A stretch of DNA of 64,000 nt from the IMG/VR virus record IMGVR_UViG_3300012344_000011, positions 75,825-139,824 of that record. The stretch is one strand, 5' to 3'. The DNA is from a virus (Duplodnaviria; Caudoviricetes). Every line of letters starts with the position of its first letter. The first letter of the stretch is position 1. Under the pieces are notes generated by a model that made no database searches, was not told where the DNA came from, and saw only the letters and a list, made by a program, of their open reading frames with translations. Shown one piece after another: positions 1 to 59,488 of this stretch. A program made the translations under genes and the position numbers.

Positions 1-3000
1 TCTTTTTTACCAGCACCTATTTGCGGCGATAGTATATATCCACCATCTTCATTAATATCTATTCCAACTCCATCTCAACCATTGATAGAAGCTAAAGAAT
101 AAACATTAGAAGTGAAACAAATTGGAACAACAAGCTCCGCAATTTGTTCATTTTTATCATCTAAGATTTTTATACTGATATTATTATTTGAATAATTAGC
201 ATCAAAAATTTCGTTAGGAATAACGTATATTTCTGATATAACCTCTTCATTATTTTCTTCTTTGAAAAACTGTGATAATACTCCAATATCAGCTAAACCT
301 AAGTTATATTGCTCAGTTTTTTCTATGAAATAGAAAGCACAATTCTTAATCAATACATCGTGCTCGTTTAATAGTTCTAATAAAGACTTTTCTTTTTCAT
401 CATCTTTTTTTAACTGACTTTTTATATTTTCTATCTTTGCTCGATAATAATCTAACTGTTGTTTTACAATAGGATAATTATTCTCATTATCGTTATTCTC
501 TTCTACTATTCCATTAAATTTTTCAAAAAGTTCTGTGCAAAGAAAATAACTTTTTATTTTTTCTATAACAACTTTTTCTCCATAAGCAAGTTCATCCTTA
601 CCAATGTTGACAGCTAACAGAGAAGTCTGTCCATTATTGATATATTTTCTTAGTTGATCTATACTATCAACACTTGCCCTGTTATAAGAAATACCTAATT
701 TACCTATATATTCAGAGCTTTCTTTATAGCTTGTCATCGTAGTAGAAAATTGATTTCTAATATTCTGTAATATATTATTTATTTTTTCAATTTCATTATA
801 TTCTGTCTCAATTTCATTTATCAAATCATTATATTGATTGTATATATCTGAAACAGAAATGTTTGACCATTTGAAAGCATTTTGTAAATAGAACTCTTGA
901 TATATCTTCTGAAGAAGGTCTCTTACAGTAGAAATCAAATCAGAAATATTTTTCTTTGAAGACAATAATTCTTTGAATTGTTCATTTATTCTTTCACAAT
1001 TTTGACTATCATCTTTCGCGATAATATTCTTGATACTGTTAATAAAATTATTGGCATTCTCTGCAATGTTGTCTAATTGAAGTTTTGTCCCGCCTTGTTT
1101 GCTATTTTTTGTAAAAGATATAGTAAAGTTTGGTCTTAAATAGCTTCCAGATTCTATTGGACCACTTTCAACGCTCCAAATAATTTTACTATTATTGAAT
1201 AAATTTTTATTCATTTTTAGCGCAACTCCAATAGAACTGTTGAATTGCGGGTTAGCATTGTCCGCATCATAAATAATATAATTTAGTGTTTTAGAATTTA
1301 CTAAATTGATTGGAGTACTCGAATAATTATAACCAAGGGAATATTTCAAAACAGGAATATTATAATAATTATAATATTTCTTTCCATCAAATTTTATTTC
1401 ACCTTTTACTGTTTGATAATTATAGAAAGCTCCACTTGCATTGTTCTTTGTAATTGCACCGGTTTCTTTCTTAATATCAAATTCTTTTACAGTTTGCGGC
1501 GAACCTTTTCCAAGAAAAGACCAAGTTTTAGAAAAATTCTCTGAAATGGGCTGAGTGTTTTGATATAAAGACATTTTTAGTGAAGTAAAATCAATAGAAG
1601 CATTTACATATAAACCATTGTTATCTTTTATATTCCATATGTCGCCATCTTCTTGTTCGATGAAGCATAATTTGTTATCATCTTCAGGAGAAAAGATTGG
1701 ACTAATTTTTGCAACAAAGTTTGTTCCATTTGTGCCAGGCTCACCAACTTTGCCAAAATAAAAATTAGTATCAGCTTTATAAATACTATCTTTGTAAACT
1801 ACTGTTGCAGTAATAACATTGTCAGTAGCTTCCATGTCATATTTTTCTTCAATTTGAAGAGGAAGAATTTTTCCATAGAATCTATTTTCATTTATGTTGT
1901 AGTCTGGTTTTTTGATCAAGCTTTTTCCTTGCGGCAGCTCCCAATAGTAAGTGACATCATCTAGAGACATTGGCTCATTAGTAGTAGGATCTCTAAATTC
2001 AATTTCAAGATTCTTTATTTCGAGTGGAGTCTTTTTCTTATCACTCGCGGGAGACATACCATTTTCATCATATTGAAAAACTTGATTTCCATTCTTAATA
2101 AAGACATAAGAATTTATTGATAGATTTGCCAAATTATTTGTTAGTGTAATTGAAGCAGAACCCCGCAAGCTATCATTCCTATAAACTTGACAACAATATT
2201 CTACATTTTCAGGTTTGACTTTTAAAATATTTCCATTTACACCTTTTATAAAACTAATTCCTTCTACCTGAGAAATTAGTCTTGCATAATCTGCTCTAAT
2301 AAGACTTTTATCTGAAACAGTTGTAGCTGCATCTAATTTAACTTTTTGTTCATTTTCTAGCTCTTCTTTTGTTTTTTCTAAGAGACAATATTCACCATTA
2401 TCGTCTCTCTTGGACCACACAAAACTAAATTCTGTGTCAGAGACATTATCTTCAAAAGAAGAGTCTTTGTCATTAATATAACAAGTCAGTATTGGAGAAC
2501 CATTACTTATATAGAAATTAGTGCCTTGACTACTTTTAATAGTAATATTATAACTATTAAAATTATTATAAACATTTATTGTATTAGCAATAGCTTTATT
2601 TTCATCGCAGACACAAACACACTTAATAGTATTTGTATTACTCTTACAATCATCAATGTTTAGAATAATTGTTTTTTCTTCTTGATTAATTTTTCTATAA
2701 CCAGAGCCAAGCCGCCCATTATAATCTACACTCTTGGAATTTATAGATACATCATTGATTCCCCAAATATATTGATTACAATTAGTTTCTTTATGATCTT
2801 TGAAAACATTTGCGGTCAATGTAATTTTATCATCTATTTTTTCAAAGGAATTTCCATTAGGAGAAGTAATTGAAACACAATATCCATCTTGATCAGAAGT
2901 CATCTTTGATAAAGCATATAATTCTAAATTATTGAATTTGACATATCCATAATCATCTTTTGTATCTTTTGTTACAAATCCAGAAGTATAAAGTAAAATA

Positions 3001-3749
3001 CTTTGAATATAATTGAACTTAACACCTTCAAAATTAAAAATTGCATATTGAGAAGAGCCATTATAGAATTTCATTGGATTACCAAGCATCTTTTCAGTGT
3101 TTAGAATATATGAAACATTAGATGTATTTTCTCCAATAGAGACATTCATAGTAATGATAATACCATAATCACCACTTGCGTTTGTTGCTAGATTTGTTAA
3201 GAAATTTGCTTTTATCAAAATAGAATCTGCATCATTCAAATTGTTTGTAAAAGACTTTTCATCTACGTCTACCCAAATAGGATTAGTATCTTCTTCGTCT
3301 CTATCTTTTTTATAACAAAAATTATAATTAGAAACTTTGTTACAATATAAAATTGAAGGGAAAGCAGTATAACTTCTATTGTCTGCGTCACTTCAAGTTT
3401 CTTTATTTATAATTATATTTCCACCAACTTTAGTATAATTTGATAGAATATTTGCGTTTGTTCGCTCTTCTTCTTGATCAAGAGGTGCAATCTCAGCTAA
3501 ACCGAGGATATATTTTACATTATCAAAATTACCTTGCGGGACTTGCACATAAACAAGATCGCCAATATTATATTTTTCAGAATTATTACTATAAGCTGCG
3601 ATTTGTCCGCCATTATAAGAAGCTGTATATTGATTGTCGCTTTGAACAGAAACAATTGATGCTTTGACCGTTTTATCACTGTTTGTGCCAGAGCTGTTTT
3701 CGCTAATAATTGACATAGCTTTTAATAGTGCTCCTGTATAATCTGCCAT
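1..3749 (-). CDS. Large baseplate/tail structural protein, 3' end beyond window; TGA=Trp at 3393 and 75
   Basis: ORFs 3393..3749 and 75..3239 are in one frame joined by TGA (KET-W-SDAD). The frame continues through TGA at 75 (SING-W-DGVGIDINEDGGYILSPQIGAGKK) to the window edge. Lies directly downstream of the tape measure. Confidence 0.8.
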
Positions 3750-3835
3750 TAAATCACCCCTTTTATCTCCTATAATTTTTTATATTTCTCTATATAATTA
3801 AAAAACAAATTATACTAATTACTGTCTTTCGCCCA

Positions 3836-3865
3836 ATAAAAAAGGAGGACTCATAAGAGTCCTCC
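3836..3865 (-). terminator. Intrinsic terminator after tape measure gene
   Basis: GGAGGACTC-TTAT-GAGTCCTCC followed by a T-run on the minus strand. Confidence 0.8.
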
Positions 3866-3871
3866 TAGATT

Positions 3872-6800
3872 TTAATAGTTGCGGTGTGCTGATTGATAAG
3901 CCATATCTGCGATATTAAGTAGAGCGTTTTCAATTTCAATAGAAGAAGTGACATTGGGGAAGTCAGCTTTTATTTCAACTCTTTGCTCAATAGTATCGCC
4001 ACCATTTGCTGCAAATAATTTGCTGTAGTCAGTAATATTATTACCTAGAATATTCTGCATTTGCCGCACTTGACTTACTATATCTAATAAGTTCTTAGTG
4101 TCAGTTGCGTTAAGAACAAGTTCTTTTTGGTGAAGAATTGCTAAACGACCTTCTTTTTCATCAATGCCGCCATTCCAAGAGCCAGTGTAACCGCCAGAGT
4201 CATATCTCTTAAATCTTGTATAATAATCAGTATCGTGCTTTCAATTATTCATTTTTATGAAGTATCTTACCAAGTCAACAAAACCAGAATAATTACCCCA
4301 CCATTCTGCGGAAGCAACACCAGCTAACCTATTTTCATAATCAGGATCATCATCATCATTACCATATGACGAATAGTTGCCCGCATTAACAATTGAACCT
4401 GCAATTGCTTCTGCCCATTCATAGTTAGATAATGAAGCAAGATCTTTATCACTAGACCATACTCTACCAGAAGCATAATTCTTGATTTCGCCAGGCATTT
4501 TATCTAAGCCACTTACAGAATTTAGCGCATCATTCGCAGTTTGAGATAATGTTTTGAACTCATTATTCAAATTATTGACAATTGTTGAGGCTTTGTTGAA
4601 CTGCGTCTGTAGCTGTTTAACAATTTCTTGAGCAGCCTTGGCCATCTCACTAGTGATTTCTATGCAAACTTCGTCAATGCTTTTCTTAAGAGAAATCAAA
4701 TCAGCTTCAAATTTTGGTGATTCAAAACTTAGATTGTTTATTTTACTCTGTAAAGAGAAGATGGAAGCTTCAATAGCTTTGACCTGTTGACTGCTAATAT
4801 TTGCATTACCACCAAGATCACCATAGATTGTATCTAATGTTTCCTTCATTTTAGTAGAATAATCAGTTAGGCTATTTTCTAAGGCATTTAACAAATCTCC
4901 ACTATATTTGTTATATTCATCTAATACACCTGTAGTACTTTGTTTGACCTGTCCCGCAAGATCGGTCATCTTAGTTGTTACTTCACCAATTTTAGTATTT
5001 GTATCATTTGCAAATAGCTGGAATCTTGAATCAATTTCATTGATAGTTTCAGTAGAATCAGTTTGCATTTGTTTATAAATACCAGTAAGTGATTCTGCAT
5101 TTTCATTGGAAATTGTTTCTGTAGACTGAGCAACCTGTTGTAAAATTTCTAAACTATAAGTTTTTATGTTTTCAGATTGACCAGCACTATACTCTCCAAG
5201 AGAAGCCATAACTTCTTGGATGCGGGCTTTGCGCTCTTCCGCATCAAGATTTGCATCTGTCCATATTTCAATAATTTTATCTCTTGCATTGGTAATTTCA
5301 GAAATTGTATTATTCTCTGAATCAAGGAGAGCTTGCTTAGCGATGTTATATGCATTAATTTGTGCATCTAATAAATCTTGTTGCTTTTGAGCTACATCTG
5401 ATTCATCTGCTGTATAAACATAACTATAGTTGCCACTAGCATCTCTTTGTAATCGCATTTTTGTTTTCGCAGATTGAGCATCTTGTAAAGCAATTTGTTT
5501 CTCTAGAACGCTTAGTTGTGCATTAGCATAATCTATGTCGGCTTGCGTTAACTTATCTTTTTCTCTTAGATAATCTAATTGATCGTTCATTTGAGCAGAG
5601 ATTTGTTGCTGAATGCCAGTATTTTTCTGCGCCGCATCATTCAACATCTTTTGATAAGAGAACTGCAACTTTTGAATGTTATAAGCTTTATTCATATCAT
5701 CTAAATGAGCTTCTTCATTGCGTTGCCGCATTTCCCACTGACTCTGCATCCAATCTACATCACCACCAAGAAGAGAATTGGCAAATTCATTAGCAGCTTT
5801 GTTAGCTTGAATTTCAAGCCTTTCAGATATTTTTTCCAAGAGAGATTGTTCAGTATCCATCTGCTCAGATTGGAGATCTGTAATTTTATCTTTTGCATCT
5901 TGTAGTGCCTCTTCGTTCTCTTGACTCCAATGAATATTAGCTTGTTTTGTTTCTTCTAATTTATCAACTATAGATTGCCAATAATTGATTCCAGAAGATA
6001 AAGCATCTAGTTGTCCGTTGTATGCGGAAACGGCCAAATCATTAGCTGACAATTGATAATCATAACCTTTTTCACCGTAGAAAAGAGAAATTTGTTCAGA
6101 TAGACTATCTATAGAATCAATCAATCTATCATAAGAATCAAAGCGTCTTGAAATAATATCTTCCGCAGTATCTATTGCATCAGAAATTACTTCGTTTAAA
6201 CTCTCAAAACTGTTTATAATAGATTCTGATACAGTCTGAACTCTATCCATTGCATCTTTAAGATTATCATATGCGGCTTGCGCGGTAACCTCAGAATATT
6301 CATCTGTACCTTGCTTGGCAATTGCTTCTTGCATTTGTTTTTGCGCTTCTTCAAGTTGCTGCAAAGCTATTAGCTGTGGAGAACTATAAGAAGCAGATTT
6401 ATACTCTGCATTATCTTTTTCTTGCGCAGCAACAGAACCAATCGCTCGCATAACCGCATCTACGAAATCATTATACCCAGCAAAATCTCGTAGAACGTAT
6501 TCTTTGTCTCTATCAGGGTTTGCAGTTAAGATACTTTTTACAGCTGCGTCATAAAGAGCTTGCGCTTCATCTTTTTTACCTTCTTTTAATAAGTCAACCA
6601 TTGTGTGGAAGTTACCTTTATCAAAGACAGGACCTATGTCTCCGCCGCCAATAGTGCTCCAATCTACATTTGGATCTTCTCTTGGACCTAATTGATTATA
6701 GATTTGATTTGCACCAGATTGCTCAAGAGCACTATCGAGTAATTTATCACGAGAAACTTGTTTATCAAGGCCAAGCATTTTCTTTACATCATCTTCTGTA

Positions 6801-9800
6801 ATGTTAGAGAATGTTTTTGTCTTACCGTTTCAATCTGTCATTTTTGCAGTAACACCAATAAGGTCTTTTATTGTGCCAGAAGCAGATTCTATTGCTGGTG
6901 TAAATCTTGTTGAGAGATTAGCTCCATTGTTTAAGAATTCAAATACTTTTTGATTAAACTCTCTAGAGTCTTTTATGGCATTGATCCATTCGTTTAGCAT
7001 ATCAGACAATGTATCAAATATTTTGTCATTTGTATCTTGAATATTGTCTACACCTTCACGAATTTCTTTCTCATAACCTTCTTGTTTATCAAGAAGATCT
7101 TGATAATTTTCCCAAGCTTCTTTGGCTTTATCCATATTATCTTTTGCATCAGACAAAGCATCATCAAATTCAGTTGTATCTTCATCATCTTTATGCTCGT
7201 TATAGGTGTCAACAGCGTCATTATAAGCCGCAACAAAAGCATCATAAATATCTTTTGCATTAATTATATTACCATCAATATCATATTGAAGTTCAATACC
7301 AACCATATCTGCATAGCCACGAATAGTTTTATTACCATACTCGTCTTCAGCTTGATTCTTTTGGATCTCTATTTGTTCTTTGGCGAGGTCAACTTCTTGT
7401 TGCTTTAACTTTAAATACTCTTCATAACTTTTCTTTAGTTTTTCAAGATTTTTTACTTTCTTTGAACCATATAATTCATCATCATATTCAGAAAGTACGT
7501 CTTGTTTTGCGGTGAGACGAGAAATTTTATTTTCTATCGGCTTAAATGGATCTCATTTACCTTTTTCAGCCTTTTTAGGTTTAGCAGCTTTTTTAGAACC
7601 GCCACCTCCGCCGCCGCCGCCACCTCCGCCGCCACCTTTATTAGATGAACCAACAGAACCGTTACCTGTGAATTTTATGCCGCCAGTGCCTTCACCAGTT
7701 TTAATCGCAGCTACTTTTATTGTTTCGTCAGGTACGGGTTCTTGTCTTGAGGTTACTTCTTCTTCAATATCATATGTGTCTGGATCAGATCCCGTCTTTT
7801 TAACTGTTTGATGCTTGTACGTAACTGTTTTGGTCTGTGGGAGGTGTGTATCTACTTCTTCAACCTCTGCTTCCATACCAACAGATGCAAGGAGGGCATT
7901 CATTTGATCAACACTCATACCTGTTGCTAAAGCTAGTTGATTTAATGAGTTTACCCAATTATTATACGCTTCTTGTGATTCAAATGCGCTTGAAACATCG
8001 TCTCCCGCTTGCAAACCAGCGGCAGCTATTTGATTAAATCCATCTATAACAGTTTGTTTATTTGAATCAAAATTTTGTAATGCAGTGTTCATTTCTGATA
8101 GACCTGGGTCTAATTGAATATCATCGTTTACTTTAAGACTTTCTTTAACGGAAGCAGCTATAGTTGAAGATTTTTCTAAATTTCCAACGACATCTTTTCC
8201 AACAGCAAATCCAAGTTGATTGATAGCTTCTTCAGACCCATCTGCGGCTTCTTGCAATAATTCCATATTTTTAGCAGAATCAAAGAATTCTTTTGATAAA
8301 TCTAAATCTTCAGATGTACCAACCAACTTAGCAATAGTTTTTTCTAATTGTTTCGTTACTTTAACATAATCTAAATCATATTTATTACTTTTTTTGAGAA
8401 TATCGCTTCATTCTTCTCAGTTTTTAGATAATTCTTCAACGCCTTGATTCATACGCTGGTTTTGAATCGCCAGGTTCCTCGCAGAAGTTGCATCTAAATC
8501 ATAGGCTTCTGCTAGAGCTTCGGCTTGCTCTACTACTTCATCATAGTTTAATTCATATTTTTCTGATTCAGATTTTGTAATTGTTTCGAGCTGCTTATTA
8601 TATTCTTGTTCAGTTGCTGCTTTTTGTTCTTCTGTTTCATCACCAGCGTCTGCTTCACGCTTTGCTGCTTTTAATTCATTGAAAGAATTGGCTTCAGAAA
8701 TTTTATCTGTTGCATCAGCAAATCCTCTGACATTTTCTGTTCCATTTTGTAAGGCAGCTATAAATTCATCTATTGTAGGATAAGTTTCAATCATTTTTGC
8801 TTGGAACCCATCAATATTGTTCACATAAGCTTGAAGCGCTGCCATTTTATCGTCAGCAGTTCCAGTCTCAGTATCTTTAAAACTTGAAATTTTAGAACTT
8901 AAGTCTTCAGCATATGGCTTTGATAAATCAACCATTTTAGAAGCAATAAGTTTATCCTTCATATAATCTGAAGAATAACCATCTTCTACAAGAGTTCTTT
9001 TACCATCTTCACCAATTTCATAGAATTCACCGTCAACGTATTCAATAGCATCGTCTAATTCTGCAAATTTTTCTTTTAAAACTTCATCTGAATAAGCATC
9101 AACTTCTTTCTCTGCTTCTTTGCGATACTCTCCTCCTTCTACCATCTTCTTAGCAACTGCACTTTGCACAATTTCTTGCCCAGTCGTACCAATGTTAGTA
9201 TAATTTTTATCATTACTCATCATTGAACCAACTTGAGCTTTTTGAATATTTTTTATTTGATTGTCTGTAGAAATGTAGTTTGCCCCAATTTTTTGTAGAT
9301 CGGAAAGGTCTTGACTAGAAAGCTCAGAATACATTTTGTTAAGTTTTTCTTTTGATATATCATAAGTTTTAGAACTATTCGCTTCTTTAAAAGCTTCAAG
9401 AGCTTCCTCGGTAGAAGTAAAACCTGTTTTTGACTCAGCAATAAATTTAGAAAAATCTTTAGTTATTTCATCTGCCGCTCTTTTATCTGATTGCTTTGAA
9501 TTTGATTCTCCATATCCGTGATTTACTGAGTCGTATAATGAATTAGAAATTTCATCGCCTTGCACTTTTGCTTTGCTCTCTAAGACTTTTATTTGTTCAA
9601 AAGCTACAGCGGCCTGAGCTTTCTGAAAATTATCGTTTGCTTTATTTGAAGCATATTTTTGAGCAGCAGTTGTGATTGATAACTCACCATTTTCGCCTGT
9701 TTCAAAAATTTCACCATCAAAATCTTCTAACAAATTTTTATAGTTATTATAAAAATCTCATGCATTCTTATTAGCTTTCTGAATCGCTTCAGAAAATTCT

Positions 9801-12800
9801 TCAGTACCTTTCGTTAACCCCTTAAAGGTGTCTTTACTATTTTTTAATGTATCAATTGAAGATTTCAAGTTTTCTACTTGAGTTTTGGCGTCGTCAAGAG
9901 TAGCTGAATAGTCAGAAAGATTACTTTTTGCTTTATCTAAGGCATCTGAATTTTTATTCAAAGCAGCATTTGTAGATTCTATATTTTTAGCAATCGCAAC
10001 GACTACGCCCGCAACAAGTGCAATAGCAGCAGCAGCAATGGCTATTTCTGGTAAAATGCCAAGTAGCACTGCTCCAAAATTAGAAAAAGCTGCTGTTAAA
10101 ACACTTATCGTTGTTCCAGCCGCACTACCGCCTGCTGCAATATTTCTCAAAGCAGTCCCTGTTGTAGTAACTGCTGCTGATACTCCGCCATTTGCTTTAC
10201 TAACAGCTTGGACGCTCTTTACATAAAGTCAATTTGCTACAGTTGCAGCTCCAGTGATAGCGACATCAGCCGCTTTTGCATCTCGTAAAGCTTTAAAAGC
10301 ATCAATAACAATGGGAAAGATCATAGATATAGCCATTAACGTTGGAAGAATTGCATCCCCAATATTTCCTTCTTGGATAGAAGAAATTGCTTCACCTATT
10401 GTGTCAAAAGCAAAAGCTAAAGAAATTGCATGTCCAACAGCTCTTGACAAAGAGTTTATCATAGACTCAAGCTTCATTCTTTCAACTTCAGCAGCAGACC
10501 TTGCTGTTGCTTGTTCTATTTCTTGCCAAGCTATACCAGCTTTTTCAGCAGCCTGCATGAACGCTGTTGTTAAAGCTTCGCTATTAGAAATTTCAGATTT
10601 TATCTTTGACATTATCTGTAAGTCTTCTGCATCTAATTGTTGCTTTTGTTTTATTTTTTGAACAATTGTCGCGAAGCCACCTGAGATTTTTTCTAATTGT
10701 GCATTTTGCATTTTTAGATTGTTTGCATTTTTTGACGAATTATAAGCTTCTTTAACAGCTTTAGCAATTTTCTTTCTTGCAGCCAACTCTTCTTCCGCAA
10801 ATGCAAGAGCAGTTTTATTTCTATTAAGCTCATCTTTATTTTGAATTGACGCAATTTTATTTTCATGAATTTGAGTTGCTTTTGCTTGTAATGCCGCATC
10901 AATTTTATCTGTATTCTGTCCTTTCGATCTAGCATCTTTCCTTTGCTGCTTAAGAACATTGGCTTCTTCGACAAGAAGCTGTCCTTCATTGATTAGAGTA
11001 TCACGCTTATCTGTTAAAACCTTTCTATTATCTTTTAAATCTTTAACCTTTTTTTCTTTTCTGCTAACACTAGAAGCTTCTGCTCCAACAGTTTGTGCAA
11101 CGATTTTCCCGCCACGCTCTTTTTCTGCGGCTTTTACTCTTTGTTCTTCAATCTTAATAGCTTCTTTATTTTCTTTGATTTGATTTTGAATTGCATCTGT
11201 TATATCGCCCTCTGCCACTTCAAGTTGACGAACACTTTCATATCTTTTTTGCTCTAATTGATATAGTTCATTTGCCATTTCTCTTGCACGGGTTTGAGAT
11301 TTCTCTGAAAGATTTGAATATACAGGAGCAACTCCAGACATAAACCTAGATGTTAAGCTGTTATTTATTTCGTCTATATTCTTAAAGCCAAGCATATCTG
11401 TAACAGCATTTAATCTTTTGGCGCTACTTGAATATGTTATAATACTAGAAATTGAATTTGCAATAGAAGAAATTTGAGAACTAATTTGTGAACTAAAAAC
11501 TCTAAAGAAACTTGCTCCAAGAATCTTTATGACACCATCTAATCCACCAGCTGCTTCAATCAATGCATTCAAACCATTCACAAGTTTTGTAACATCCTCA
11601 AGAACTGGTTCAACAGCATCTTGATTAAAAAGAGTCGTCATTACTTGTTCACCAGCAGCTTGCAAAGTTTTCATACGACCTTCAATACCAGATGCAAACT
11701 CTTCTTGCATAGCATCCATCATACCATCTGCACCCTGTGTAGCTTCTAAAGCTTTATCATAATACTCTTGATTATTCATCAAAGCGGCAAAACGATTATA
11801 TTGGAATTTACCAGCAACTTTTTCACCTACAGCAACCTTTTGAGTTTCACTTAAACCTTTCCAAGTATCTTGCAAGTCATGAAGAATCGCATCAAAACCA
11901 CGGAATTCACCCTGTGCATCTCTTACTTGAACTCCAATAGAACTCAATGCTTGAGCATATTCACCCTCAGCAATACCATCATCTGTTTTTCCGCTAGTCT
12001 TAATGTCTGCGAAACGTTGCATAATGGTTTTCATACCATTACCAATCTCTTCGGCACTCTGACGAGTAACAGATTGAATAGTGGCAACAGATGCAAGGAA
12101 CGTATCTTCAGTCGCTCCAACAGCAGAGGCAACAGATGCAGAACGCTGAGCTGCGGTCATTAGCTCACTGACATTAGAAGCAGTACTATTTGCTACATTT
12201 GCTAACTTATCTAGAGATTGGCTCATTTCATCAATTGAGAGTCCAAAAGCATTACGATATGCAGTAATTTGGTCTGAAGTTGTAGCACTATCTTGCTCAG
12301 AAACATTCGCTAATTTAATTGCTAAATCAGCCTGTAATTTTGAGTCAGAAAGAGAGAAGCCTTCTTGCGTGAAAACTTTAATTGCATTTGTATAATCAAC
12401 AGTCGTCGTCGCAAGTCCTTGAGCAGCTTTGTTCGCGTACTGGGCTAATTCTCGCATATTTTTCGCAGATGCTTGTGAAACCATCTGGATTTGCGTTAAG
12501 GATTCATCTAGTTTTTCCATATATCGAACTGCACCAGAAATACTACTAACTACTTCCTGAAAGATTCCAGCAGTAATGCCCCAACGAACAGTGTTTGAAA
12601 AAGTTGTAAAGACTTTTGACATAGTGGAATTTACAGTAACAGCATTTTTATTAATTGACATTAAGCTATTTGCTAGTGCAGCATTTGCTCTTTGTCCTTG
12701 TTCACCCATTTTTGATCATCTTGCTGCAATACCCTGTAAATTAGTGTCAGTCATTTTTAATGATGTATTCAACTTAGTCAAGTCTAAAGAATTTATTTTT

Positions 12801-13012
12801 GGGTTAAAAGCTTTCTTTAAAGCTACTTCAAGTTGATTGATTTCTTTAATTGACTGTTTTATTTCAGCTGGTTGCAAGCCAGTTATTTTAGTAGCATTAT
12901 TTGCGGTTAGAGTCGTTTTTAATTTAGTTAACTCATTTCGTAGTTGAGTAACACCACTTGCATCTAGAGTCGTTTTAATATTGTATACGATCTCATTAGA
13001 ATATTTGGAAAT
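3872..13012 (-). CDS. Tail tape measure protein, ~3046 aa with 8 TGA=Trp codons; probable ATT start
   Basis: Seven ORF-track fragments are in one frame separated only by TGA (12716, 10229, 9758, 8417, 8408, 7553, 6830, 4241). N-terminal TMP repeat domain (LDKLANVANSTAS...VAGKFQYNRFAALM), coiled coil, and C-terminal YDSGGYTGSW...LAILHQKELVLNATDT motif. Confidence 0.9.
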
Positions 13013-13029: not shown

Positions 13030-13827
13030 CTAACAGAATTGCCAGTGATATCCACCAGCAGTTTTTTGTTCATTAATACAACACTTAGAAACTCCTGCGC
13101 TTGATTTTAAGCCAATTGCTTTTGCAGCTTTGCACGCAGAAGAATAAACCATATTTGTTTCTATACATTTAACAGGCTTTGCTCAAGCACTATTTTGACT
13201 TAATTTTTCCTTATGCTCTTCAGAGAATTTTTTCCCATACATGGGATTATTTTCGCCACAATATTTTCCCATTTTACTTTCAGACAACTTCTGTCTATGT
13301 TCTTGAGATAATTTCTTCCCCTTTAAAGATTTGCCAAGTTTACGTATTTGTTCTCTCTGATTTTCTCTTAAACCAGAATCTCACTGCATTTTTGTGGTAG
13401 AACCACTTGGAAGAATCTCTATATTATTAGATTCACATGCTTTCTGAACGGTAATTGGAGCACAACGAAATTTTTCACAAACTGCTCTTTCAGATCCTAG
13501 CTCAATATAAGCTTGTGCCAGTTCCTGATACCTATATTTTAACCTTCCTTCTCCGCCGAGGGTCATATTATAGCCATTGTTACAACTATCTAAAAGAGAA
13601 ATTCAATAGCGTTCTTTCTTATTTAGCTCAGAATCATCGCAATGCTCTAATTCTTGAATTTCAAAATTTTCTTCGCCATATTTTCTCATGGCCTTGTAGA
13701 GATAGTATGGAACTCCATTTTTGGCGTTTCTTTTGTGCTCTTTAAATCTATGTTCTATAGTTCCCGCAGTTTGGCCAATATAAATTTTTCCTGTAAGAAC
13801 ATTTGTTATTTTATAGATACAGCCCAA
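13030..13827 (-). CDS. Free-standing GIY-YIG homing endonuclease with NUMOD repeats; TGA=Trp at 13603, 13381, 13183
   Basis: IYKITN..IYIGQT motif; KERY-W-ISLLDSCNNGYNMTLGGEG; GENNPMYGKK; C-terminal KTAGGYHWQFC then TAG. Confidence 0.85.
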
Positions 13828-18030: not shown

Positions 18031-18174
18031 ATTTTTTCCTCCTTAAAAGAAAATAAATTATAACTTATTTTTTAAGATTTTTAATATTATAATATCCTTG
18101 TAATCAAACAGACACGCGCTATCCATTTGACTCTTATATATATAAACTAGATTAAGGCACATCTAGATTATAAA

Positions 18175-18924
18175 CTAATAAATGTTTGCAGACCAATCGT
18201 CAGGTTCTTCCATTTTTGAAACATCCATCATTGGAGTAGTAGAAACCTTCTGATATAAATCACTGCTAACTTTTTTCCAATAACGATTAAAAGCATTCTG
18301 TAATTGAAAAGGAGTATAATTATAAAGTATGTTTATATCCATATTCATTCCAATAGAAAGAATAGAAGTATAAGAACCAAATAAAGTTGCTTTCTCTGAC
18401 TCTTGCGGTCCAGATTTCATAGCCTGGATCTTTTCGTGAGCTTTCTGAAACTTTTTAGCCAACTCCGCAGCTTTACCATTTACAGGATTATAATCTTTGC
18501 CACCTGAGCCAATTAAAAATAAATTCTTAATAACTTCTTTAAAAGCTTCAACATTGAATGGATTGATCATACCGACCCGTTTATCTTCTTGTTTAAATTC
18601 AATATCCTCTTCAATATTTACTTCGTAATTAGGAAAAACTAAAATAAAAAATTTATCGATACTTTCTTTTAAAAAACCATCTTGTCGCATCAAAGCAACA
18701 TAAATCTGATAATCTGTATAATTATTCAAATCAGGATTACCTTCTTTGATTTTTTCAATATGTGATTCTGGTTTTCCAAGAAAGTTCGCAGCTAATAAAA
18801 AATCACTTTCTCCAAAAGCAACAATCTGTTTTATAGAAGGCTGAATTGCAATAATATTGCAAGCCTTAATAGGAACAGGCTGTCCACTCAAATATAAAGC
18901 AATATCGTCTCCTTTTAACGCCAT
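18175..18924 (-). CDS. Tail-module hypothetical protein
   Basis: Intact 249-aa ORF with GAGGTG RBS; position. Confidence 0.6.
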   Translation of the reverse strand: MALKGDDIALYLSGQPVPIKACNIIAIQPSIKQIVAFGESDFLLAANFLGKPESHIEKIKEGNPDLNNYTDYQIYVALMRQDGFLKESIDKFFILVFPNYEVNIEEDIEFKQEDKRVGMINPFNVEAFKEVIKNLFLIGSGGKDYNPVNGKAAELAKKFQKAHEKIQAMKSGPQESEKATLFGSYTSILSIGMNMDINILYNYTPFQLQNAFNRYWKKVSSDLYQKVSTTPMMDVSKMEEPDDWSANIY

Positions 18925-18935
18925 TTATCTCACCT

Positions 18936-19532: not shown

Positions 19533-19541
19533 AATCCCTCC

Positions 19542-46139: not shown

Positions 46140-46377
46140 TTATAGAAGTATAAATTTATTATATACAACTATTATACTATTATATAATTATTATACTACT
46201 ATATATATAACTAATATACTATTATATAAATATACTAAAATAAAATTCTATATCTTATTATTTATTATATTTATATTATTTATATTATTTCTCCCTTGAT
46301 TATCAAGACAAGATTGTCTTGATTATCAAGACAAGATTCCCTTGATTATCAAGATAACCCTTATCTTGATTATCAAG
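46140..46377. other. Probable replication origin: AT-rich tract plus four palindromic iterons
   Basis: CTTGATTATCAAG at 46295, 46318, 46341 and 46365 (23/23/24-bp spacing) beside a ~150-bp nearly pure A/T tract. Confidence 0.7.
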
Positions 46378-46711
46378 ACAACCCATTTTTTCCGTTACGA
46401 AAAAAGTTATACCAAGGCGTTCCTTCAACTTGCACTAAGTAACCTTTCTCAATAAGCTTCTTCACCGCATTCTTATAAGCACTTTCACCCAAGCCAATAT
46501 GCTCGCTTACATCAGCTTTACTTAATCCAAATTGATAACCATTAGCATTACATGCTATATACTGCCATAGCATATAAGCATTGCCACCTAAATCCCGCAT
46601 AACCGCAAAACACAAATCATTGTTCTCTGAAAAGAATGGAGCTTCAACTCTGCTAGGAGAATGCACGTTGATACCAATTTGATTGTTATATAATTTTACC
46701 ATTGGTATCAC
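46370..46711 (-). CDS. HTH protein, candidate replication initiator
   Basis: AYMLWQYIA..LSKADVSEHIGLGESAYKNAVKKLIEKGYL; ends TGA-TAA inside the iteron at 46365. Confidence 0.6.
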
Positions 46712-49221: not shown

Positions 49222-49524
49222 TCACCAACTCTCAGTATAACCATAATGAGAAAGCAACTGACGAATATTGTCTGCTCCAACAGGATTCATACTATGAATA
49301 TGAAAAACACTCATAGGAATATCATTACTTACAATATACTTTGCAATATCATACCCAGAAACAGTAGACCCAAGATCATGATCAAAGTCAATCCCAAAGC
49401 TGGTTTCAGTTTTCCAGCATTCATCTATAAGACTTTTCATCTGTGCAGCAGTTCTTACAAGAATTGCTTTAAACCCAATAGGTACTTCTCTTTCATCGTC
49501 AAGATAAAACCAAAGCATTATCAT
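49222..49524 (-). CDS. Cyclic-phosphate-processing receiver domain protein
   Basis: FYLDDEREVP..DFDHDLG..SGYDIAKYIV..IHSMNPVGADNI signature. Confidence 0.75.
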   Translation of the reverse strand: MIMLWFYLDDEREVPIGFKAILVRTAAQMKSLIDECWKTETSFGIDFDHDLGSTVSGYDIAKYIVSNDIPMSVFHIHSMNPVGADNIRQLLSHYGYTESW

Positions 49525-49527: not shown

Positions 49528-49791
49528 TCACTCATAGTCCCAGCATGCTTCTTGATGTTCTTCCTCTAGAATTGCATCTGCTTCTGTTGGATAGAAGAAC
49601 TCTTTGCGGTGAAACACCCAATCATAAGCAGGTTCAGCACCAGTAAGCCGCAACAGAGTCAACATATCTTGAACAGCAGGATCAAGGATGTTACCATAAG
49701 AATTAAGAATCTCACAGATACGCATCTTCGCGTATCCATTCTTAAAGTTGTCTGCAATTTCGACATAGCGCCGCAACATATAATCAACCAT
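49528..49791 (-). CDS. Hypothetical protein
   Basis: 87 aa, own promoter and AAGGAG RBS; ends in a TGA overlapping the next gene's GAGGT RBS. Confidence 0.55.
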   Translation of the reverse strand: MVDYMLRRYVEIADNFKNGYAKMRICEILNSYGNILDPAVQDMLTLLRLTGAEPAYDWVFHRKEFFYPTEADAILEEEHQEACWDYE

Positions 49792-54222: not shown

Positions 54223-54275
54223 TATTGCATTAGTATAAAACAGACACGCCACGTGAAGGCTGCAATATTGTGTCC
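54223..54275 (-). ncRNA. Minimal HDV-like (theta) ribozyme at the tRNA-Met 3' end
   Basis: P1 GGACAC/GTGTCT (G1.U), P2 TATTGCA/TGCAATA, P3 GCC-TTCACGT-GGC, J4/2 CTAA. Confidence 0.85.
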
Positions 54276-54347
54276 TCGCGGGAGGTGGAATCGAACCACC
54301 ATATCATAGCTTATGAGGCTATTGAGTTACCAGTACTCTATCCCGCG
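54276..54347 (-). tRNA. tRNA with CAT anticodon (Met; Ile2 not excluded), no encoded CCA
   Basis: CGCGGGA/TCCCGCG, ATAGC-CTCATAA-GCTAT, GGTGG-TTCGATT-CCACC. Confidence 0.9.
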
Positions 54348-54348
54348 A

Positions 54349-54424
54349 TGGTGCCTTCTGTAGGACTTGACCTACACTCCTCGGTTTAAGAGACCGCCAC
54401 TTTGACCAATTAAGTTAAGAAGGC
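54349..54424 (-). tRNA. tRNA-Lys(CTT) with a 6-nt T loop
   Basis: GCCTTCT/AGAAGGC, CGGT-CTCTTAA-ACCG, ACCA end. Confidence 0.8.
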
Positions 54425-54433
54425 ATAATAAGC

Positions 54434-54496
54434 TTTGCTCCCTCTCGAACTATTAAACACTTGATTAACAGTCAAGCCTGAGTACAAGGGAGTAAA
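54434..54496 (-). pseudogene. Armless tRNA-Asn(GTT)-like element
   Basis: TTTACTCCCT/AGGGAGCAAA stem plus GCTTGA-CTGTTAA-TCAAGT arm; D and T stems absent, GTTCGA remnant. Confidence 0.55.
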
Positions 54497-54627
54497 AATT
54501 ATTGTGGGTCAGATTTGCATATTCGGCACTGACCCGTTGCAAGTCTCCTTTTCTTGCGCCCCGATTCACGACATTAGCCTTTGTCCAATCAGTGTTACCG
54601 TCCTAGTGGCTAATTCAGGCAACCGCT

Positions 54628-54888
54628 TGGTTCCTTGGGTGGGACTCGACCCACGACTAAAAGATTACTTTAGTACATCGCTTTCGCATTGTAGTCCGGA
54701 CTTTCTCTTCTTCCTCTTGGGAAGTCCCGTGTAAAGTCTCTACACATAGTATCTTAAAAATACCTTGCTCGAGATTAGCATATGTTTCCACTTAGCCTTC
54801 CCCGAATTAACGGGATTTTCATTACATATCGCTGCATAATGCTACTAATTACTAAAAATCTTCTACGCTACCACTGCGTCACCAAGGA
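54628..54888 (-). tRNA. tRNA-Lys(TTT) interrupted by a group I intron
   Basis: 5' half TCCTTGG-TG-ACGC-AGTGGTA-GCGT-A-GAAGA-TTTT; 3' half TAA-TCTTT-TAGTC-GTGGG-TCGAGT-CCCAC-CCAAGGA-ACCA. Confidence 0.85.
54668..54854 (-). mobile_element. Compact 187-nt group I intron in the anticodon (position 35/36)
   Basis: AATTCGGGGAAGGCT (P), GCTAATCTCGAGC (Q), GTAGAGACTTT (R), AAGAGAAAGTCC (S), terminal G. Confidence 0.8.
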
Positions 54889-54939
54889 ATTTAATAATAA
54901 TATTATAACATATTATTTATTCTTTTGTCAACAAAATCT

Positions 54940-55650
54940 TTATACCGACCCAATAGAAGAGATAAGAGAACGAGCAACTATTTCGTGAAGAACTCGCGGC
55001 AAAAGCTCTGAAACAAACTTGTCGTTACCCAGCTCTTCTTCTTCAATAGCATCACGATTATTCATAAAATCATCATATATAGCATCAGCTATATCAACTC
55101 TTCCTTCTATAAAAGAAGAAAAATTCTCAGCATCAATTTCTGTATAACCAGTGCTAAAGCAATCTTCAAATGAAGCACCTGCCGCAACCTTCTCAACCAT
55201 TTTACATAAACGATCAATCTCTGCGACACAAACATTAGCTTTTCTTGGATAACTTCTTGCATAACAACGATTGGTATCAATAAAAGCAAACAACTGTTCC
55301 ATCATTAGCGCCTTGTCAGAAAAAGCAATCTCAGAATTATACTTCTGCAAAGTATTCCATTGAGCAGAATACATAGGATTGATAACAATATCCTTCTCAA
55401 CAAGGGTCATTAAAGAAAGAAACTCCTGATCACGAAGAAGGTCTATATATTCTCGAAGATCAACAATTTCACACCACATACCATCTTCAAAGATATTACT
55501 ATTCTCGATCATATGTTCTCCATCAAGCAAATCTTGCAGAGTAGGAATAACAATCAGCTTGCCGCACCCATCAATTACAGAGAAGCAAAGCCAATCACGA
55601 TAATCAACAATAGAACGAAGTTCATCAATCTTTGCGGCATAATTACTCAT
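54940..55650 (-). CDS. Degenerate nucleotidyltransferase-like protein
   Basis: LIVIPTLQDLL..DLREYIDLL..INPMY..W..L..EIA resembles phage nucleotidyltransferases, but no GS..DxD motif is visible. Confidence 0.4.
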   Translation of the reverse strand: MSNYAAKIDELRSIVDYRDWLCFSVIDGCGKLIVIPTLQDLLDGEHMIENSNIFEDGMWCEIVDLREYIDLLRDQEFLSLMTLVEKDIVINPMYSAQWNTLQKYNSEIAFSDKALMMEQLFAFIDTNRCYARSYPRKANVCVAEIDRLCKMVEKVAAGASFEDCFSTGYTEIDAENFSSFIEGRVDIADAIYDDFMNNRDAIEEEELGNDKFVSELLPRVLHEIVARSLISSIGSV

Positions 55651-55830
55651 TTTCAATCCTTTTCACTACATCTTCAAAACTTGGAATTACAAATTTTTCT
55701 TTTATCTTATTACTAAGAAAAAAATCGAAAGACTCTTGACAAGAATCAGACCATTCATCATAATCAACCAAACAAAGGAAACCATTGAGTTTATTCATAT
55801 AATTCTGCATTCTATTACCTTTCTATTGGT

Positions 55831-55888
55831 AACTCAATTTCAGTAAAAACAGGACACACCACGTGAAGGTATTGAGTCAAAGTGTCCC
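55831..55888 (-). ncRNA. Minimal HDV-like (theta) ribozyme at the tRNA-Ser 3' end
   Basis: P1 GGGACAC/GTGTCCT, P2 GACTCAAT/ATTGAGTT, P3 ACC-TTCACGT-GGT, J4/2 CTGAA. Confidence 0.85.
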
Positions 55889-55889
55889 G

Positions 55890-55975
55890 CAGAATCTACC
55901 AGAATCGAACTGGCACTAGGTTATTCACCTAGGAAAGCTTAGCAGGCTTCTGCGCTACCATTACGCCAAGATTCC
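55890..55975 (-). tRNA. tRNA-Ser(GCT), no complete encoded CCA
   Basis: GAAGC-CTGCTAA-GCTTT, long variable arm CTAGGT/ACCTAG, G73. Confidence 0.9.
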
Positions 55976-55982
55976 ATTTAGC

Positions 55983-56069
55983 TGGTGCAAGCAAAGAGAT
56001 TCGAACTCTCAATCCACAACGGGCGCTTGATTTTGAGTCAAGATTGTATGCCAATTCCAACACGCTTGC
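55983..56069 (-). tRNA. tRNA-Leu(CAA)
   Basis: CTTGA-CTCAAAA-TCAAG, long variable arm, ACCA. Confidence 0.92.
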
Positions 56070-56210
56070 ATAATTATATTATACCATATTTACATAGCTG
56101 CTGTCAACCACTTTCTCTTGGAGGGAATGAATTTTAACTTTCATTCTTCCCTTACTGACAAATATATATTATATCATATTTACATAACTATCGTCAATAA
56201 GTATTTTATA

Positions 56211-56285
56211 TGGTGGTTCTGAGAAGAGTTGAACTTCTGTTTAGCGCTTATCAGGCGCTTGTACTAACCATTATACGACAGAACC
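56211..56285 (-). tRNA. tRNA-Ile(GAT)
   Basis: AGCGC-CTGATAA-GCGCT, ACCA. Confidence 0.92.
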
Positions 56286-56377
56286 AAAGGCTGAAGCACT
56301 TTAGTGACTCAGACATTGTGCTTCATATATACTTAGCTGCTTTTGAGTCTTATCGAACAAGTATGCAGCAACCTTGT

Positions 56378-56455
56378 TGGTGTCCCTGGCAGGATTCGAA
56401 CCTGCGCCCCACTGTTTAGAAGACAGTAGCTCTAATTCCACTGAGCTACAGGGAC
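56378..56455 (-). tRNA. tRNA-Arg(TCT)
   Basis: ACTGT-CTTCTAA-ACAGT, GCAGG-TTCGAAT-CCTGC, ACCA. Confidence 0.93.
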
Positions 56456-56556
56456 TTAATAATAATATTATAATATATTTTTTATTCTTTTGTCAAGAAA
56501 TTTTCTTTATAAAAACTTAATACATCAAGACCAAGAGAATCATCTAAAATCATATC

Positions 56557-57114
56557 TCAAGCATTCTTGCGGGCAGCTGCTCTATTTATAGTCTCTCGAT
56601 GAATAGACTGTATCTTAGATACAGCACCATTCTTTATAAGAGTCTTTAGAGAAATTGGCTTATAACCAATTACATTTGCCGCAAAATTCTTATGATAGCG
56701 ATCGTTTTTCTGCCATTGAGAATGATCATGTCCATGAAAATTCACAACAAAATCAAGTCCCTGAATAGGCTCGTGAGAAAGAAGAATCTTCTCTGCGATC
56801 ATAAGAGGTCCATCATAAACTTCATCAAAGACTTCAAGATACTTAGCCTTGGCTTCATCATCATGATTACCCTTGATCAATACCTTGTAAGCCTTAATTC
56901 GCTTTGCTACTTCAAGATCACCAACATCACCCAATAGAACAAGAGTATCATTCTTATGAGCAATTTTGTTTATGATAGCAAGCTGCTGTTCTGCGGGAAT
57001 CCAGTTCTTGTCCATCAACTTACAGTCCGCATCATTGAAATGCGTATCAGAGAAGATGTAAACAGAACCCTTTTCAGCCCACTTCTGAAACGGTGCATAT
57101 AACATATCAATCAC
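56557..57114 (-). CDS. Calcineurin-like metallophosphoesterase
   Basis: SDTHF, LGDVG, KGNHD, SHEP, HGHDH; start position approximate. Confidence 0.85.
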   Translation of the reverse strand: MIDMLYAPFQKWAEKGSVYIFSDTHFNDADCKLMDKNWIPAEQQLAIINKIAHKNDTLVLLGDVGDLEVAKRIKAYKVLIKGNHDDEAKAKYLEVFDEVYDGPLMIAEKILLSHEPIQGLDFVVNFHGHDHSQWQKNDRYHKNFAANVIGYKPISLKTLIKNGAVSKIQSIHRETINRAAARKNA

Positions 57115-57140
57115 ATTTACATCTTCTCCAATCAAAATAA

Positions 57141-57476
57141 TTAGGCTAGGCAATCAATATGATGACGCAAGAACGCACGATTCATATCACCCATTACTAC
57201 CATTTCAACAGTATCGAAACGAATTTGACCAGTAATTCCCATACCAGTCTTGTTAAGATAATCAAAAGCTTCCTTCTCTAGAACACCACGAAGCTGCTTC
57301 TCAGAATCAGTTTCACTCATTTCGTCTACAAAACGAATGCGAATAAAGACAAGTTGATCATCGTCATAAGCAACTGCATCAATATTCTCACTTACAACCT
57401 TGTCAACGATTTCATATCCACGCTTCTCAAGAAAAGTAATCGCCGTGCGCAAACCCCTAGAATAAAGATTTTCCAT
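57141..57476 (-). CDS. YraN/UPF0102-like nuclease-fold protein, catalytic ExK lost
   Basis: FLEKRGYEIV..IDAVAYDDDQLVFIRIR..IRFDTV..RAFLRHHI. Confidence 0.65.
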   Translation of the reverse strand: MENLYSRGLRTAITFLEKRGYEIVDKVVSENIDAVAYDDDQLVFIRIRFVDEMSETDSEKQLRGVLEKEAFDYLNKTGMGITGQIRFDTVEMVVMGDMNRAFLRHHIDCLA

Positions 57477-58395: not shown

Positions 58396-58405
58396 ATAAT
58401 TTCTC

Positions 58406-59131
58406 CTAAACCTTATAAAGAACATTATAAAGACCAATCATGCGGCTGTCAAGATCCTCAGACCACTGTTGATCAAAATGCATATGACCGTGTACCCAAA
58501 CATCAAAGTCCAACTCTTTACGAAGAATCTCAAGATACTTTTCACCGCAAGTTCGTATATAACGATCAAGGAGGAAAGGCAACATTTCTTTGACCAAAAC
58601 AGGTGCTTCGTGAGTAACAATCAGATCAAAATGTTCTTTATCATGCTCTGCCATAAAATCAAGACACGCATCAATGTTGACTACTTCTTGCGGCCACCAG
58701 TTGATTCCTTCAGTGCGCCATTTCTTATCATGACTCTCCGCACCATTGATACACAAAATATGTTTACCATCAATATCAAGCGTAGCAATAGTGTCTATAA
58801 TATAGATATTCTCAAAAGTAGTACCCATATAAGTGCATTGCCACATAGTACCACTATTCAAAAAATCAGGAGTACAATGCGGCATAGCTTCATAAATAGG
58901 ATAGCACTCGTGATTACCAAGCACAACAATAGTTTTCCAAGGCTTAGAATTTAGCCAATTCAAACGATAGTAATCCTCTTCACTATCACCGTGCCAGTCC
59001 CAGATAACACCAAAGTCACCTGCAATAATAACATAATCTTCAGAAGTTAGCTTTCGCATTTCCGGACTCTGGTTATAAGAGAAAGCTTCAAAGACTTCCC
59101 CGTGAATATCTCCATGACAATAAATTGCCAT
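58406..59131 (-). CDS. Calcineurin-like metallophosphoesterase
   Basis: GDIHG, AGDFG, LGNHE, THEAP, HGHMH. Confidence 0.88.
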   Translation of the reverse strand: MAIYCHGDIHGEVFEAFSYNQSPEMRKLTSEDYVIIAGDFGVIWDWHGDSEEDYYRLNWLNSKPWKTIVVLGNHECYPIYEAMPHCTPDFLNSGTMWQCTYMGTTFENIYIIDTIATLDIDGKHILCINGAESHDKKWRTEGINWWPQEVVNIDACLDFMAEHDKEHFDLIVTHEAPVLVKEMLPFLLDRYIRTCGEKYLEILRKELDFDVWVHGHMHFDQQWSEDLDSRMIGLYNVLYKV

Positions 59132-59148
59132 TTTTACCTCCAATTGTA

Positions 59149-59364
59149 TTATACAAAAAAACTTTCTTCGCCACTAGTTGCGAAATCTTCACAGACCTGT
59201 TGAAACTGGCTGTCAAGATAAGTTGCACACATCCAAGCACGATAAATAGCTTCAAATGCTTCATGAATACTAGCTTCAGGAGCAACTTTAATAGTAATAT
59301 CAGTATCTTTCATATCATCAAAAATCAACTTAATCATTTCAATTTCCTTATCTCTCAACTTCAT
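59149..59364 (-). CDS. Small hypothetical protein
   Basis: ORF downstream of a consensus promoter; start uncertain. Confidence 0.45.
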   Translation of the reverse strand: MKLRDKEIEMIKLIFDDMKDTDITIKVAPEASIHEAFEAIYRAWMCATYLDSQFQQVCEDFATSGEESFFV

Positions 59365-59488
59365 TAATAATATTATAGCATATTTATTGCTCATTTGTCA
59401 ATCAAAACATTTTATAATATTATTCTAAAAATTTTATCTTCTCAACCCTTCTTTTATAATTATACAATTTTTTATATTTTTGTCAAAT

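Follow-up and report, generated by a model that had tools for sequence, protein, structure and literature searches.

A class of gut phages with reassigned stop codons has been described. According to the published model late genes are recoded and depend on suppressor tRNAs, early genes remain compatible with the standard code, the reassigned codon is divested as a stop, and intron endonucleases are preferentially recoded (Borges et al., bioRxiv 10.1101/2021.08.26.457843). In a standard-code relative of the 'Agate' phages TGA ends 4 of 146 genes (Borges et al., bioRxiv 10.1101/2021.08.26.457843). Here, we analyse the usage of TGA in a phage of this kind. The window, i.e., the whole stretch under study, consists of the right-hand 64 kb (64,000 nucleotides, bases 75825-139824) of a single 139,824-bp contig, the IMG/VR virus record IMGVR_UViG_3300012344_000011 (CheckV completeness 96%). 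Coordinates are those of the window unless marked as genome positions.

By similarities of its portal, terL and tape measure the phage falls among the large siphophages of the Firmicutes type. Of the phages with a name, the TAG-recoded human-gut phage phAss-1 is the nearest, with a portal that is 37% identical. Closer relatives exist within IMG/VR with portal identities of 59-72%; one of these, G001, was fetched as a whole (140,682 bp, about 70% nucleotide identity across alignable parts). An IMG/VR scan with the tape measure as a query returned one distant relative only, the one with the TROVE protein as a query zero relatives.

The genome is written for both uses of TGA, tryptophan in some genes and stop in a few others. 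We are rather confident in placing this phage in the known class of gut phages with recoded stop codons, TGA being read in two ways within one genome. The original prediction had proposed a timed suppression of UGA, which is the model of Borges et al. This is a clear case of a published phage strategy; late-gene recoding with suppressor tRNAs was already known. The additions are in the details: real TGA ends in early genes, a test for selection in two lineages, a generic bias of the base following TGA (+4), and limits to an explanation by copy number. The evidence reaches somewhat beyond the lengths of open reading frames (ORFs), to protein ends at TGA, to a promoter and a terminator located in would-be protein tails, and to a comparison of two lineages.

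TGA as tryptophan codon and as stop codon

The strongest evidence that TGA equals tryptophan is the codon-level comparison with G001. Where this phage has TGG, G001 has TGG at 108 sites and TGA at 35; where it has TGA, G001 has TGA at 9 sites and TGG at one. The two codons are exchanged between the phages and therefore behave as synonyms. Homologs of individual genes point in the same direction. The TGA of an HNH homing endonuclease (17002..17712, minus strand; TGA 17299-17301, two TGAs further upstream precede the true start) faces W in 19 of 19 aligned homologs. In alignments with phAss-1, 6 of 10 covered TGAs face a TGG-encoded tryptophan, both terL sites among them, and this rate equals that of the phage's own TGG codons. 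Codon 75 of a GIY-YIG endonuclease, a TGA, faces W in phAss-1. The TGAs of a 1579-aa tail protein face W at 6 of 6 sites in its closest homolog and at 5 of 6 in two more distant ones.

Translated with table 11, the minus strand below 34 kb falls into fragments which table 4 (code 4) fuses. Greedy ORF coverage of the genome increases from 80.7% to 86.4% under code 4, with full-length ORFs such as a 3001-aa tape measure and tail proteins of 2104, 1579 and 1081 aa. For such genomes annotation under either single code goes wrong. Using segment-wise coding scores, profile matches and homolog alignments, we count 50 sense TGAs genome-wide and 21 in the window, all of them below 34 kb. Earlier, 22 had been counted. 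The earlier list was right for the tape measure (8), terL (2), the 'terS-like' gene (1), the regulator upstream of it (2) and the neck and baseplate genes; it omitted the GIY-YIG endonuclease (3), the HNH endonuclease (1) and a 484-aa gene (1). Also right was the claim that genes in the upper part of the window have no internal TGA: above 34 kb there are 0 TGA and 73 TGG, below 34 kb 22 TGA and 74 TGG (Fisher p=2e-6). In the genes for tail, packaging and homing endonucleases about one tryptophan in five is spelled TGA.

All TGA-bearing genes of the window are on the minus strand. Eight TGAs are in the tape measure (3872..12877, 3001 aa, Pfam PhageMin_Tail 2e-26), at 4241-4243, 6830-6832, 7553-7555, 8408-8410, 8417-8419, 9758-9760, 10229-10231 and 12716-12718. 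Each segment between them scores as coding, and the tape measure of G001 likewise contains TGA. Two (75-77 and 3393-3395) are in the 2104-aa tail/baseplate protein, a code-4 ORF with a match to the tail protein phrog_3267, of which the window contains the C-terminal 1249 codons (3..3749); its G001 ortholog has 12 TGA and 3 TGG. Three (13183-13185, 13381-13383, 13603-13605) are in the GIY-YIG homing endonuclease (13030..13827; phrog_314, 1.5e-49, residues 1-264). A single TGA each is present in the 484-aa tail-module protein (14492..15946; TGA 14846-14848), in the HNH endonuclease and in a neck-region gene (19542-20477; TGA 20016-20018). Save for this neck-region gene the head module (17809..27668, with the portal at 26079-27668, a putative capsid gene at 22949-24046, and others) uses TGG only; together with a tube-like ORF (16019-16909) it has 0 TGA versus 25 TGG.

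Upstream, terL has two sense TGAs in its fourth exon (28626-28628 and 29016-29018), both facing W. The adjacent 408-aa gene, the 'terS-like' one (31412..32638; phrog_3314, 9e-47), has one at 32492-32494 which is spanned by the phAss-1 alignment; its G001 ortholog has 3 TGA and 1 TGG. The first gene of the late minus-strand block (32639..33715) codes for a sigma-like protein of 358 aa with TGAs at 32942-32944 and 33017-33019. Its match to phrog_5767 (1.4e-34) is a single stretch, residues 16-353, which spans both TGAs, and the G001 ortholog has 6 TGA and 2 TGG. It is a putative sigma factor by its PHROG label alone; Pfam and PDB sequence searches with this protein returned no match, and a single-sequence AlphaFold model was poor (predicted local distance difference test, pLDDT, 53).

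Outside of the window, TGA is a sense codon in the replication-block genes for RecJ, a DNA methyltransferase and RuvC, where profile alignments span the TGAs, and in one unannotated ORF. No sense TGA is present in the genes for topoisomerase, ligase, primase, NrdD and the two halves of the polymerase. The DNA polymerase is contained in two ORFs (447 and 660 aa; genome 36924-42760, plus strand) with an HNH endonuclease gene and another TGA-bearing ORF in between; the split is probably due to an intron or the insertion of a homing element.

At the other end of the scale are four ORFs which end at TGA, present as originally described and all on the minus strand. A helix-turn-helix protein of 112 aa (46373..46711) ends with TGA directly followed by TAA. 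An 87-aa ORF (49528..49791), with a perfect sigma-70 promoter at 49853-49824, ends at TGA 49528-49530, overlapping with GAGG, the ribosome-binding site of the gene that follows. The latter encodes a cyclic-phosphate receiver (cREC_REC, Pfam PF20274, 5e-18; 49222..49518) and ends at TGA 49222-49224. The fourth is a calcineurin-like phosphoesterase of 198 aa (56557..57153), ending at TGA 56557-56559.

The C-termini of homologs were the check proposed for these ORFs, and three of them (49222, 49528, 56557) end where most homologs end. The 87-aa ORF has stand-alone homologs of 81-87 aa which end at TGA 49528, and none spans the junction to cREC. The cREC homologs, too, are stand-alone proteins of about 100 aa, starting at ATG 49518 and ending at TGA 49222. 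Most of the 24 aligned phosphoesterase homologs end at most a few residues from TGA 56557; three continue with unrelated tails. The sequences beyond the stops have other contents: past the cREC stop a second TGA follows 10 codons on, and a hairpin with a T-rich tail is located in the would-be extension; the perfect TTGACA-18-TATAAT promoter of tRNA-Arg (56467..56496, minus strand) is located within the 24 codons which readthrough of TGA 56557 would translate. TGA is the natural protein end for at least three early-like genes. The predicted consequences of suppression, a fusion of 49528..49791 to cREC and a 24-codon extension of the phosphoesterase, are correct in frame. In G001 no orthologs of the four ORFs were found, only a weak phosphoesterase paralog. 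Tandem TGA-TAA is present at 46373 and in one gene outside the window; TAA directly follows 2 of 5 TGA stops versus 4 of 120 other stops (p=0.018). The remaining well-scoring ORFs end with TAA (86) or TAG (33).

The reading of terL is further obscured. Its fragmentation (28134..31412, minus strand) is due mostly to three group I introns, so that terL is hidden beyond the problem of the code. The four exons are at 31412-31071, about 30160-29942, 29637-29335 and 29060-28134, with the introns in between (about 31070-30161, 29941-29638 and 29334-29061). Exon joins were derived from the collinearity with the terL of phAss-1 and the uninterrupted terL of G001. Two introns pass the Rfam group I cut-off (matches at 29068-29357 and 29681-29953). 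The first intron contains an endonuclease-fragment ORF (30390-30641).

Gene classes, a second lineage and the early-like block

The share of TGA among tryptophan codons, TGA/(TGA+TGG), had been proposed as a test by gene class, and it is far from uniform: late genes have 32/169 versus 1/109 in early-like genes (p=6e-7), the labels 'early' and 'late' being given by promoter motifs and gene content. Individual classes are 26/129 for the tail, 6/40 for head plus packaging, 6/99 for the replication block without endonucleases and 1/109 for the early-like minus-strand block. Homing endonucleases have the highest share (11/29, 38%). Tail (20%) and head plus packaging (15%) are alike (p=0.64).

G001 is much more heavily recoded. 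Its tail genes have 35 TGA and 11 TGG, head plus packaging 23 and 17, i.e., 58 TGA and 28 TGG for late genes in total; its replication genes have 6 TGA and 75 TGG, and its early orthologs 0 TGA at 22 aligned tryptophan sites. When the two lineages are compared, over half of the aligned tryptophan sites in late genes have switched from TGG to TGA. Given 0 of 22 flips in early genes against this late rate, early genes are evidently kept free of TGA by selection. The lone exception in the early-like block is a small gene bordering the replication block, and its TGA is kept in G001. Four apparent TGAs in early orthologs of G001 are artefacts or belong to this border gene. Two of the four, the seemingly conserved TGAs upstream of 44095-44466, were considered as coding and rejected; they are a translated sigma-70 promoter, in which TTGACA reads L-T and TATAAT Y-N. 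The promoter upstream of 44466 is kept in G001. TGA-free early genes in both lineages next to freely flipping late genes support, as far as codon patterns go, a time-dependent decoding.

The early-like part of the window has a distinct promoter equipment. Perfect 12/12 sigma-70 promoters (TTGACA-N16-18-TATAAT) number 10 in 33-64 kb and 1 in 1-20 kb, and many 11/12 matches are present in 33-64 kb. The positions are 52030, 49853, 44604, 59486, 59401, 58452, 56496, 56107 and 54931 on the minus strand and 39839 on the plus strand; several sigma-70 matches carry an extended -10 TG. Sense UGA is practically absent from the block driven by these promoters of host type (the window above 34 kb), where UGA is the stop of four genes. 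Its gene content, with small ORFs and a tRNA cluster as well as genes for a Ro60/TROVE protein, cREC, phosphoesterases and an RNA ligase, is in keeping with an early role. An RNA-repair-like set, consisting of the Ro60/TROVE-vWA protein, the cREC receiver, the RNA ligase and phosphoesterases, is found at 49222-51353 and at genome 3931-5778, all in the TGA-free block. Small plus-strand ORFs at 36400-41000 share an upstream motif, CAAGAGAAAGGAAA, which resembles a ribosome-binding site and precedes the starts at 36441, 37329, 38334, 38774, 39901, 40661 and 40929.

Presumably, the same block carries on past the contig end into genome 1-15 kb. Both contig ends (window 63350-64000 and genome 1-1645) cut minus-strand ORFs of similar Gly/Ala/Ser/Thr-rich composition whose frames do not join exactly. 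The assembly probably ended within a repetitive gene, the genome being circularly permuted or close to complete.

The decoder tRNA, a proposed timed decoding and its rivals

The sole tRNA with a UCA anticodon is encoded at genome 51418-51514, 24 kb left of the window, directly after the RuvC-like gene. It has 97 nt, a long extra arm and an encoded CCA. The 7-nt loop of the extra arm, GUCCAAA, is a copy of the anticodon loop of tRNA-Trp. A TCCAAA loop is common to five other long phage tRNA(UCA) genes in IMG/VR (L011, L014, L028, L037, L083), and L049 has the near-copy TCCATA. tRNA-Sec-like genes located at contig ends lack the TCCAAA loop; these are probably host selC genes at prophage borders. 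G001 also encodes a tRNA(UCA). A gene for a release factor or a tryptophanyl-tRNA synthetase was not found in the genome. In phAss-1 an 88-nt tRNA-Sup(CUA) (L009:12445-12532; phAss-1 62445-62532) has the extra-arm loop CUCUGAA, which resembles the anticodon loop of tRNA-Gln (CUG). It may be the TAG/glutamine counterpart of the two-armed design of tRNA(UCA).

The other tRNAs have their own peculiarities. The cluster at 54275..56455 (minus strand) comprises Met, Lys(CUU), Ser, Leu, Ile and Arg, none of them with a UCA anticodon. Its tRNA-Lys(CUU) (54352-54424, minus strand; 60 bits with Rfam) was missed by ARAGORN, as was a tRNA(UGU) at genome 7797-7867 which is a weak Rfam match. At genome 6950-7035 (minus strand) an 86-nt tRNA combines the anticodon CAU with a long variable arm, which is odd for an anticodon of the Met/Ile type. 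A group I intron-like match (54675-54864, minus strand; 46.3 bits, cut-off 50) is located between the tRNA cluster and a gene for a GIY-YIG endonuclease.

We propose the following sequence of events. Early genes would be translated under the standard code of the host. The phage tRNA(UCA), whose gene is part of the RuvC operon and follows a perfect sigma-70 promoter at a distance of about 2 kb, would accumulate and compete with the host release factor 2 (RF2). Only thereafter would the TGA-bearing proteins be made at full length, i.e., the sigma-like protein, terL, the tape measure and the large tail proteins. The 8 UGAs in a single tape measure and the 58-76% TGA in the late genes of G001 demand that suppression reach a very high efficiency. 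At that stage the few early genes which terminate at UGA would be read through as well, and a tandem TAA or a second TGA would limit the damage.

Several points weigh against such a two-way reading of TGA ordered in time. TGA is also present in RecJ, the DNA methyltransferase and RuvC, and RuvC is in the tRNA operon upstream of the tRNA; the split is therefore graded and not binary. The endolysin-like gene has 0 TGA at 10 tryptophan codons, and the published model stresses lysis genes; holin-like genes are without TGA, an adjacent 178-aa ORF has one, and the lysis annotations are weak. Of the early/late split as it was first put forward, the TGA-rich late and TGA-free early genes remain, its simplicity does not. 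The W faced by the TGAs of the 1579-aa tail protein in its three homologs, which are protein sequences only, may itself be a translated TGA. TGA is the stop of only about 5 of 125 genes, so TGA-stopped early genes are a handful. The derivation of the early and late labels belongs here, too.

The TGAs may be a purpose-built gate, or they may be drift which is tolerated except in early and very abundant proteins. A role in regulation is not needed if TGG drifts to TGA in an AT-rich genome once a suppressor exists, and if selection purges TGA where it is translated before the tRNA accumulates or in very abundant proteins; the pattern would then merely follow from timing. This is a plausible view, although we do not quite subscribe to it. 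The free interchange of TGG and TGA in late genes at differing levels (15-20% here versus 58-76% in G001) is in line with it, as is the high share of TGA in dispensable homing endonucleases (38%). A third argument in favor of drift is the context of TGA. The purine bias at +4, originally put forward as part of the suppression model, is real (19/21 in the window with A 11, G 8, C 1 and T 1; 43/49 genome-wide), and it differs from that of TGG (88% versus 63%, p=0.0006). However, across the codons of the genome a purine follows NNA in 72.8% and NNG in 60%, and the residual excess of TGA over NNA (88% versus 72.8%) is modest, with p about 0.01-0.02. As a sign of selection for suppression the bias was largely rejected after this control; it is mostly generic.

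The placement of TGA within genes speaks against drift. Of the 22 genes with TGA, 15 have it as their first tryptophan codon versus 10.3 expected (p=0.014), and TGA is enriched within the first 120 codons (17/49 versus 21/115 for TGG, p=0.027). Furthermore, the gene with which the late block begins is recoded here and in G001 alike. These signals are weak, and the placement of the first TGA is a weak hint of design. It would fit a designed gate with two layers: tRNA(UCA) would license the sigma-like regulator and subsequently the packaging and tail proteins, in which UGA as first tryptophan codon would cause an early abort; the capsid shell would be kept UGA-free for the sake of yield, and early UGA-ended genes would have back-up stops. 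We offer this as a tentative idea, and a rather doubtful one.

Another possibility is that the number of UGAs tunes stoichiometry, with a gate on low-copy late proteins and TGG retained for the high-copy proteins of the virion. In this genome the observation behind it, a capsid, portal, scaffold and tail tube with TGG only, stands: the head-module genes plus the tube-like ORF have 0/25 TGA versus 32/144 in other late genes (p=0.005 in a post-hoc grouping). The orthologs of capsid, scaffold and the gene at 22331 are TGA-free even in the heavily recoded G001 (0/6, chance about 0.001). The portal, in contrast, has 1 TGA and 2 TGG in G001, the tube-like gene 1 and 0, the neck-region gene 4 and 1, and the orthologs of 18936, 18175 and 21985 have 2 and 0, 1 and 1, and 1 and 0, respectively. 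As a rule, the gating of low-copy proteins fails on these portal, tube-like, neck and other head genes, and what remains of it is limited to the genes of the capsid shell. The portal is a 12-copy protein, which itself counts against a copy-number explanation, and so does the similar share of TGA in tail and head plus packaging genes reported above. In crAss-like phages the tail tube gene is preferentially recoded (Borges et al., bioRxiv 10.1101/2021.08.26.457843). On balance, tuning by copy number is unlikely.

Much less can be said for a host which itself reads UGA as tryptophan, so that the phage would use plain code 4 and the supposed TGA stops would be tryptophans followed by short tails. 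TGA stops are indeed rare, and the 86 TAA and 33 TAG codons close all other well-scoring ORFs. Yet most homologs of three genes end at TGA, the supposed coding tails are filled with a perfect promoter and a terminator hairpin, and tandem TAA is enriched after TGA. Nor does a code-4 host give a reason why early genes avoid TGA altogether in both lineages when over half of the late sites flip. We consider this highly improbable and reject it. Likewise rejected, and scarcely credible, is UGA as selenocysteine or serine, for which the long-armed tRNA(UCA) with its 97 nt, 6-bp anticodon stem and discriminator G73 might speak, as it scores better with the Rfam tRNA-Sec model RF01852 than with the general tRNA model (44.8 versus 36.2 bits): TGA is at conserved tryptophans and exchanges with TGG, the score is below the RF01852 cut-off of 47, acceptor and T stems of 7 and 5 with an encoded CCA are not the 13 bp of tRNA-Sec, and the variable-arm loop copies the tRNA-Trp anticodon loop.

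Relation to known recoded systems

Timed decoding of TGA, as favored here, has its closest parallel in the TGA-recoded 'Agate'-type phages. Common features are a large Firmicutes-type gut phage, TGA as tryptophan and a tRNA(UCA). In both, in-frame TGA accumulates in structural genes while the core of the replication machinery is spared, recoding prefers a gene for an intron or homing endonuclease, TGA is nearly given up as a stop (about 5/125 here), and early genes are proposed to be readable under the standard code. The likeness to the Agate clade is one of size, code and pattern only. Unlike in the model of Borges et al. the endolysin-like gene is unrecoded here, and RecJ, methyltransferase and RuvC are recoded.

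Like phAss-1/Phassvirus (OQ749652; PMC10607447), the phage is a siphophage of the human gut. The two have in common a genome size of about 136 kb, a tape measure close to 3000 aa in length, recoded late genes and suppressor tRNAs; in addition to the portal, terL is about 39% identical. In contrast to phAss-1, where TAG codes for glutamine (code 15), TGA codes for tryptophan here, and the sequences are distant. The tRNA-Sup(CUA) which characterizes Phassvirus and the 'Caudoviricetes code 15 clade' has no equivalent in this genome, which lacks a CUA tRNA and closes 33 ORFs with TAG. The multi-code crAss-like phages also have blocks which need either the standard code or a reassigned stop (Mgcod, bioRxiv 10.1101/2022.06.29.495998). 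However, they are an unrelated podophage lineage, and here the replication block is mixed and the partition is not clean.

The decoding of UGA as tryptophan by a tRNA(UCA) is also common to Mycoplasma and Spiroplasma with code 4 and to their phages. These bacteria lack RF2 and never use UGA as a stop. Such a uniform pattern, in which TGA never terminates and specifies tryptophan in every gene class, is not what we find. Unlike in Mycoplasma and Spiroplasma, UGA is present here at the natural ends of early genes and is kept out of early coding sequences.

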